From Escherichia coli (lineage in GTDB: Bacteria; Pseudomonadota; Gammaproteobacteria; Enterobacterales; Enterobacteriaceae): DNA of 64,000 bases. Positions 39,699-39,895 of this stretch are shown one piece after another. Under the pieces are notes generated by a model. The model saw only the letters and a program-made list of their open reading frames with translations, made no database searches and was not told the origin of the DNA. The stretch lies in NCBI RefSeq assembly GCF_003334815.1, contig NZ_QOWO01000021.1; one strand, written 5' to 3'. Position numbers and translations under genes: made by a program. Position 1 is the stretch's first letter, and the number at the start of each line of letters is the position of its first letter.

Positions 39699-39895
39699 AC
39701 CAGATGCGATGCGCACGGGTAAAACGTGCCATTAATGTCGGATGCGGCGTGAACGCCTTATCCGACCTACGTTCGGCACCCGTAGGCCGGATAAGATGCG
39801 CCAGCATCGCATCCGGCAATGCGCACAAGGTAACAAATGTGCCATTCATGTCAGATGCGGCGTGAACGCCTTATCTGACCTACGTTCGACACCAC
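39699..39895. repeat. BIME: three REP units incl. two near-identical ~55-nt copies
   Basis: gtgccattaatgtcggatgcggcgtgaacgccttatccgacctacgttcggcacc (from 39726) and gtgccattcatgtcagatgcggcgtgaacgccttatctgacctacgttcgacacc (from 39839) flanking an inverted REP. Confidence 0.85.

Follow-up and report, generated by a model that had tools for sequence, protein, structure and literature searches.

What kind of repetitive element fills the short gap between the convergent genes speB and loiP of Escherichia coli, and what does it do for the genes on either side? A preliminary description of this DNA had placed there a BIME of three REP units, and had proposed that such an array binds IHF and gyrase and varies in copy number between strains. 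Our analysis establishes that the array is an ordinary BIME-2, which means that the finding was correct, already known and nothing new. We consider it very probable that the locus as a whole is best explained as a BIME-2 with Y/Z2 anatomy that is cleaved by gyrase, is read through by transcription and would act as a hairpin barrier at the 3′ ends of messages.

Setting of the array

The window, meaning the whole 64,000-nt stretch of E. coli DNA that was analysed, is K-12-like, with a 501-nt query across the speB–loiP site being 100% identical to K-12 derivatives. In E. coli genomes the median number of sites matched by this query is 13, as expected of REP sequences, which are highly repeated. 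The gene identities in the preliminary description were borne out: speA (36650–38638) and speB (38776–39696, an annotated agmatinase in the matching genomes) lie on the plus strand, both are convergent with loiP on the minus strand, and tktA is the next gene after loiP. The speB–loiP gap spans positions 39697–39901 (205 nt), which equals MG1655 3082672–3082876, and the array is entirely extragenic between the two stop codons. Two small ORFs within the array (39704–39865 and 39742–39909) were dismissed as chance frames through repeat DNA.

On the other side of speB, many E. coli strains have a further CDS of 732 nt in the speA–speB interval, which is annotated as ‘hypothetical’ or ‘membrane protein’ (e.g. 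WP_000758881.1). Examples are found at locus L010 (1413–2144) and also at L004, L011, L123 and L124. The speA–speB gap of the K-12-like window is just 137 nt (38639–38775). A Term-seq 3′ end maps to this gap at MG1655 3083827(-), 30 nt upstream of the speB start and at about window position 38746 on the plus strand (Adams et al. 2021).

Anatomy of the array

The boundaries and parts of the element, together with a termination signal that lies beyond it, are as follows.

39694–39696, plus strand: speB stop codon TAA, the left boundary of the element (from ORF 38776–39696 and annotation)
39700–39716, minus strand: truncated Z2 REP remnant, left arm kept (CCAGATGCGATGCGCAC), about 23 nt missing relative to a full Z2
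39717–39736, no strand: shortened copy 1 of the head-side long linker, aligned with linker copy 2
39737–39770, plus strand: Y-type REP 1, GTCGGATGCGGCGTGAACGCCTTATCCGAC followed by CTAC, aligning to the naRNA4 Y hairpin
39771–39781, no strand: short 11-nt linker joining two REP tails, GTTCGGCACCC, flanked by CTAC and GTAG and placed where a BIME-2 has its S linker
39782–39817, minus strand: inverted Z2-type REP, GCCGGATGCGATGCTGGCGCATCTTATCCGGCCTAC on the minus strand, or GTAG and then GCCGGATAAGATGCGCCAGCATCGCATCCGGC on the plus strand
39818–39849, no strand: copy 2 of the head-side long linker, 32 nt, AATGCGCACAAGGTAACAAATGTGCCATTCAT, a weak hairpin (-7.6 kcal/mol, z -1.0)
39850–39883, plus strand: Y-type REP 2, GTCAGAT...ATCTGAC followed by CTAC, with a compensated G-C to A-T stem change
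39884–39901, no strand: right tail GTTCGACACCACCAGGCT, by period alignment an S-like linker and then the degenerate beginning of another Z2, reaching the loiP stop
39902–39904, minus strand: loiP stop codon, the right boundary of the element (from the ORF ending at 39902 and the loiP annotation)
40077, plus strand: peak of a region of Rho-dependent termination for speB-sense transcription, antisense with respect to loiP and lying about 176 nt beyond the array (PMC7815308); converted via speB and loiP coordinates from scores that use 800-nt windows, and therefore approximate

Period alignment gives a repeating unit of Z2, 32-nt linker, Y and 11-nt linker, with a period of 113 nt. The K-12 allele comprises about 1.8 such periods, namely a truncated period, a full period and the short tail, in that order, which fill the whole 205-nt gap. 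Because there are only about 1.8 periods and one of these is truncated, Tandem Repeats Finder reported no repeat in this allele. All three palindromes of the preliminary description are where it had placed them, with two REPs of the same orientation around an inverted third, and its count stands for full REPs. To these we add a fourth, truncated unit at the left end. Positions 39700–39714 of this remnant match 39787–39801 at 80%, and the period alignment contains a 23-column gap. This truncation is consistent with a deletion between two ATGCGC repeats, and the junction predicted from such a deletion is present exactly in E. whittamii (GGATAAGATGCGCAC).

The Y-bearing stretches lie 113 nt apart and are 88% identical over 66 nt. 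The gtgcc..ggcac span of 53 positions shows four differences between the copies, two of which form a compensating pair in the Y stem (GTCGGAT/ATCCGAC versus GTCAGAT/ATCTGAC). The near-identity claimed for the two copies is therefore sound, but the REP length of about 55 nt claimed with it is not, since the REP units are 34–36 nt, with GTAG or CTAC at all three, and the remainder is linker.

A similar division applies to the claim that each unit is a long hairpin. The GTC..GAC stems are well supported: each REP folds on either strand (-16 to -21.5 kcal/mol, z -4.3 to -5.6), including Y REP 1 at -19.2 kcal/mol (z -5.4) and the inverted Z2 REP at -21.5 kcal/mol (z -5.6), and the z values for folding the whole gap are -4.4 (plus strand) and -5.1 (minus strand). 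However, the proposed outer gtgcc/ggcac stem forms only for unit 1 folded alone (-26.4 kcal/mol). When folded in context, GUGCC pairs with an upstream GCAC inside the linker, and the outer stem of unit 3 contains a C.A mismatch. The outer stem is linker sequence that falls outside the REP proper. Linker copy 1 and positions 39708–39716 together are predicted to form a small hairpin of their own, GAUG-GCACG/CGUGC-CAUU (-10.9 kcal/mol, z -2.3).

Assignment to BIME-2

The REP assignments go far beyond what chance would produce, as 0.00 matches to either the Y core or the 36-nt Z pattern are expected in shuffled sequences. The inverted REP matches the Z pattern exactly, and the 25-nt Y core is matched with 0 and 2 mismatches by Y REP 1 and Y REP 2, respectively. 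With four other matches, the 64-kb window holds six Y cores versus 0 expected.

BIME-2 elements consist of Y and Z2 units arranged in tandem, with a short S linker, s/l/r flanks and a copy number that varies between strains, whereas BIME-1 elements join Y and Z1 through a long L linker in which an IHF site is often present (PMC3333891). The middle unit of the speB–loiP array aligns without gaps to the Z2 hairpin of the naRNA4 model, which identifies it as Z2, and Y REP 2, taken as its reverse complement, aligns to the model's Y hairpin. The Y and Z2 units alternate in orientation, as read from the positions of CTAC and GTAG. The linkers, which were compared by length and position, measure 11 nt on the tail side and 32 nt on the head side, and this fits the BIME-2 layout. 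The element is already catalogued as ‘BIMEs2, 146 bp, yggG>-<speB’ (Sutormin 2019, PMC6379681 Table DS3), although the ‘BIMEs2’ class of that table is broad and also has entries of 17–35 bp.

Other BIME loci in the window are marked by the four additional Y-type cores at 20849–20873, 24132–24156, 28579–28603 and 52543–52567, all on the minus strand. The cores at 24.1 and 28.6 kb belong to Y/Z2 pairs. A BIME-1-like element at about 52.47–52.57 kb consists of a Y, a linker of about 34 nt containing ATTCAATATATTG, which has one mismatch to the IHF consensus, and a Z1-like REP.

Variation of the array within E. coli

A query made of the two coding flanks only matched all 5,426 complete E. coli genomes. 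The flanks lie no more than 700 nt apart in 4,222 of these and are split into two places in 797, and about 407 genomes gave a match to one flank only because loiP has diverged. Gap lengths were determined for two spread samples of 60 genomes each, plus sequence reads, with the following distribution.

203/205 nt: about 60% of sampled genomes
429 nt: 7–10% of sampled genomes
47 nt: about 7% of sampled genomes
90 nt: 5–7% of sampled genomes
316 nt: one sampled genome

The main series of lengths follows 90 + 113n, and the other gaps fall in a related series. No allele longer than 429 nt was found among the 120 sampled genomes. The 429-nt allele carries the 113-nt period 3.5 times at 95% identity, as reported by Tandem Repeats Finder. 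It differs from the 316-nt allele only by one further, exact period, an indication that the duplication is recent. In 559 genomes the flanks share 99% identity or more with those of a 429-nt strain, and all six of those sampled have the 429-nt gap. Across alleles the number of REPs ranges from 1 to 7, and in about 7% of genomes the array is reduced to one degenerate palindrome. Whole 113-nt periods have been gained and lost between lineages. The proposal that copy number varies between strains is thereby confirmed, with gaps of 47, 90, 131, 203/205, 316 and 429 nt.

In about 15% of E. coli genomes, a gene island is present between speB and loiP in place of the array. Two types of island were encountered.

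dga operon islands, 7.6 kb (dagR, four PTS genes, dgaE and dagF): L124 4371–12000, and L005, L011 and L098
islands of a single DUF1266 gene: L006 and L007

No REP adjoins speB in the island alleles examined. At the dagF–loiP junction (L005, about 1455–1490) there is a palindrome, ACCGACCTAC-N9-GTAGATCGGT, whose arms are the tail 9-mers of the Y REPs of this locus. This palindrome may be a REP remnant at the island boundary.

A second series of alleles (47, 131 and 246 nt; L003 448–494 and the gaps of L033 and L088) ends in Z2 and then GTAATAAAAYGC beside the loiP stop, without the Y plus GTTCGRCAC tail. Given these differing ends, the right boundary of the array varies between lineages.

The array in other species and its age

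A degenerate pattern for the SpeB C-terminus retrieved 111 loci from species-representative genomes. The convergent speB–loiP order is widespread in Enterobacteriaceae, with gaps of 36–381 nt, and modular Y/Z2 arrays are found in the following.

E. albertii: 323 nt, three Y and two Z2
E. whittamii: 246 nt
Escherichia sp. E1V33: 205 nt
divergent E. coli: 131 nt

Citrobacter and Salmonella have different REP pairs in the same convergent gap. Stem cells are 94.9% paired across 13 distinct Y sequences, and two Y stem positions have changed on both sides in a compensated manner. The right-most Y carries the compensated A-T stem variant in the K-12-like, 316-nt and 429-nt alleles of E. coli, in E. 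albertii and in E1V33. Given this common variant, the divergence of the two Y copies is older than the separation of these species, and the periods duplicated in later expansions were not the same in different lineages. The array therefore arose before E. coli and its sister Escherichia species separated.

A different element is present immediately after the speB stop in several Citrobacter species and in Klebsiella spallanzanii. This non-REP sequence of about 120 nt (CTATTTTACTCGCCATTTTGAACCCGGGCAGTGCTCGCC...) holds internal inverted repeats (L062, L032, L017, L063 and L064), and an Rfam search with L062 and L064 gave no family at threshold.

Gyrase, transcription and transcript ends

The suggested action of gyrase has already been documented in vivo. 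Two cleavage sites were mapped in this array with rifampicin plus ciprofloxacin and two with oxolinic acid (PMC6379681), such that the element is positive under two of the four conditions (PMC6379681 Table DS3). The same study reported that gyrase favours Y units and that BIME-2 signals increase when transcription is blocked (PMC6379681).

The functional part of the preliminary description depended on where speB transcription ends, and it does not end upstream of the array. The Rho-dependent region at MG1655 3082496(-) has a score of 3.32 (p 1.0e-6; Adams et al., PMC7815308 supplementary file 2), with upstream/downstream coverage of 95/31 without bicyclomycin and 95/103 with bicyclomycin (PMC7815308). 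As this region peaks beyond the array, speB transcription traverses all three hairpins. A scan of 39697–39901 revealed no promoter-like or intrinsic-terminator-like site, and no T run follows any REP. A bidirectional intrinsic terminator would need a U tract behind a GC-rich hairpin on each strand. No 3′ end is present within the array in the Term-seq tables examined, which is weak evidence in either direction because reads from repeats are often discarded.

Published work on other REPs offers some guidance. REP hairpins protect Rho-terminated transcripts, in that Rho acts downstream and exonucleases trim the RNA back to a stable hairpin (PMC6061677). REPs between convergent genes are associated with higher expression of both genes, and terminal REPs do not generally increase mRNA half-life (bioRxiv 10.64898/2026.03.23.713779). 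The supplements of the latter report make no mention of speB or loiP, and a literature search on speB, loiP and REP returned only papers on Streptococcus SpeB.

Proposed mechanism and alternative explanations

If the preferred explanation is right, the REP hairpins on both mRNAs would serve as barriers to 3′-to-5′ exonucleases and as partial, Rho-assisted terminators, and at steady state speB and loiP transcripts would be expected to have their 3′ ends at the outer Y hairpins. We infer such a protective role at this locus, and the read-through transcription would fit it. The array might have spread and been resized by recombination or slippage between periods, possibly aided by TnpA-REP (RAYT). 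TnpA-REP-mediated recombination has been demonstrated in vitro for other BIMEs (PMC3333891). Most simply, copy number would change through slippage between 113-nt periods or through their unequal recombination. Any benefit to the host would probably be modest. With islands in about 15% of genomes and a single degenerate palindrome in about 7%, any function of the array must be dispensable.

Two alternatives concern what the array is. The first reading to consider is an IHF-binding BIME-1 (a RIB/RIP element), which would accord with the IHF binding suggested in the preliminary description. BIME-1 elements often do have an IHF site in their long L linker, although this argument holds nothing specific to the present array. 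The speB–loiP gap (39697–39901) has no match to the IHF consensus WATCAANNNNTTR within two mismatches, its middle unit aligns as Z2 rather than Z1, and its tail-side linker is 11 nt rather than long, whereas the BIME-1-like element elsewhere in the same window does have a one-mismatch site. We consider this identity wholly improbable, and the claim of IHF binding, which is a property of BIME-1 (PMC3333891), is not upheld. It is also very unlikely that the array encodes a naRNA4-like, HU-binding, nucleoid-associated small RNA. This idea derives from the only Rfam match in the gap, which is to naRNA4 (RF02564; 53.5 bits, E 5e-9, minus strand, 39785–39880). However, this score is below the gathering threshold of 59.5 bits and requires a 19-nt insertion, as linker copy 2 is longer by this amount than the naRNA4 linker. 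The Rfam model was itself made from the Y-linker-Z2 units of REP325 (PMC4550694), and the likeness amounts simply to both being composed of Y plus Z2. Judged by model score, the array is not a member of the naRNA4 family.

The other alternatives concern what the array does. A more serious challenge to the BIME-2 explanation with its inferred barrier role is that the array is neutral, selfish DNA kept in place by the REP-associated transposase and recombination, with no relevant effect on speB, loiP or topology. The array is dispensable, as judged from the genomes that have an island or one degenerate palindrome, its copy number drifts between 1 and 7 REPs, and there is no uniform effect on half-life (bioRxiv 10.64898/2026.03.23.713779), all of which would suit neutrality. 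However, several Escherichia species have retained a REP array at this site, REP pairs persist in the same gap of Citrobacter and Salmonella, stem changes are compensated, and gyrase cleaves the array in vivo (PMC6379681). On balance, we regard neutrality as a real but unlikely possibility. We see little prospect that the REPs instead reduce translation of speB or loiP through ribosome stalling at the stop codon (Liang, Rudd and Deutscher 2015). Both stop codons are indeed flanked by REPs, but this mechanism, as Liang et al. 2015 are cited in PMC12306157, requires that fewer than 16 nt separate the stop codon from a REP downstream. From the speB stop it is 40 nt to the Y1 stem, and from the loiP stop it is 18 nt to GTAG and 22 nt to the Y2 stem. 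These distances of 40 nt for speB and 18–22 nt for loiP therefore exclude stalling of this kind.

Even if the BIME-2 explanation is accepted, a more speculative extension can be considered. The number of 113-nt periods, and thus of hairpins (1 to 7), might form a heritable dial on the read-through of speB-sense and loiP-sense transcription into the opposite gene and on the lifetime of each mRNA, and the REP-filled gap may be an entry point for the dga operon and DUF1266 islands found in about 15% of strains. We judge this joint reading to be improbable. If the dial were real, agmatinase and LoiP levels would vary among lineages with 47-, 205- and 429-nt gaps even though coding sequence and promoter were unchanged.

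It seems appropriate to question the value of characterizing one more array of this type. Descriptions of REP and BIME arrays go back to the 1980s, and the present array has been published with gyrase data, leaving little to be discovered. There is modest value, nevertheless, in a clean natural allelic series between convergent genes that runs from 1 to 7 hairpins, or to none where there is an island.

Comparison with known systems

Of the systems compared, BIME-1 (RIB/RIP) elements share with this array two inverted REPs in an extragenic 3′ region. The differences lie in the use of Z1, in a long conserved L linker that has an IHF site, and in the occurrence as a single copy; the speB–loiP array shows none of these.

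The REP325/naRNA4 array between yjdM and yjdN is likewise made of Y and Z2 blocks in tandem periods (PMC4550694). It is transcribed from the upstream gene and has been proposed to act as a partly Rho-dependent terminator and mRNA stabiliser (PMC4550694; bioRxiv 10.64898/2026.03.23.713779). REP325 has 12 hairpins, a 13-nt head-side linker and a location between tandem genes, whereas the speB–loiP array lies between convergent genes and has a 32-nt linker and 3 to 7 hairpins.

Agreement with the BIME-2 family extends to alternating Y and Z2 units, a short tail-side linker with a longer head-side flank, tandem periods, strain-variable copy number and gyrase cleavage. In place of the canonical Y stem GCC.../...GGC, this array has GTC.../...GAC, a compensated change. 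Its Z2 reads GCCGGATG rather than GCCTGATG, and its left-most Z2 is truncated. All three are local peculiarities, and none is an essential difference from BIME-2.
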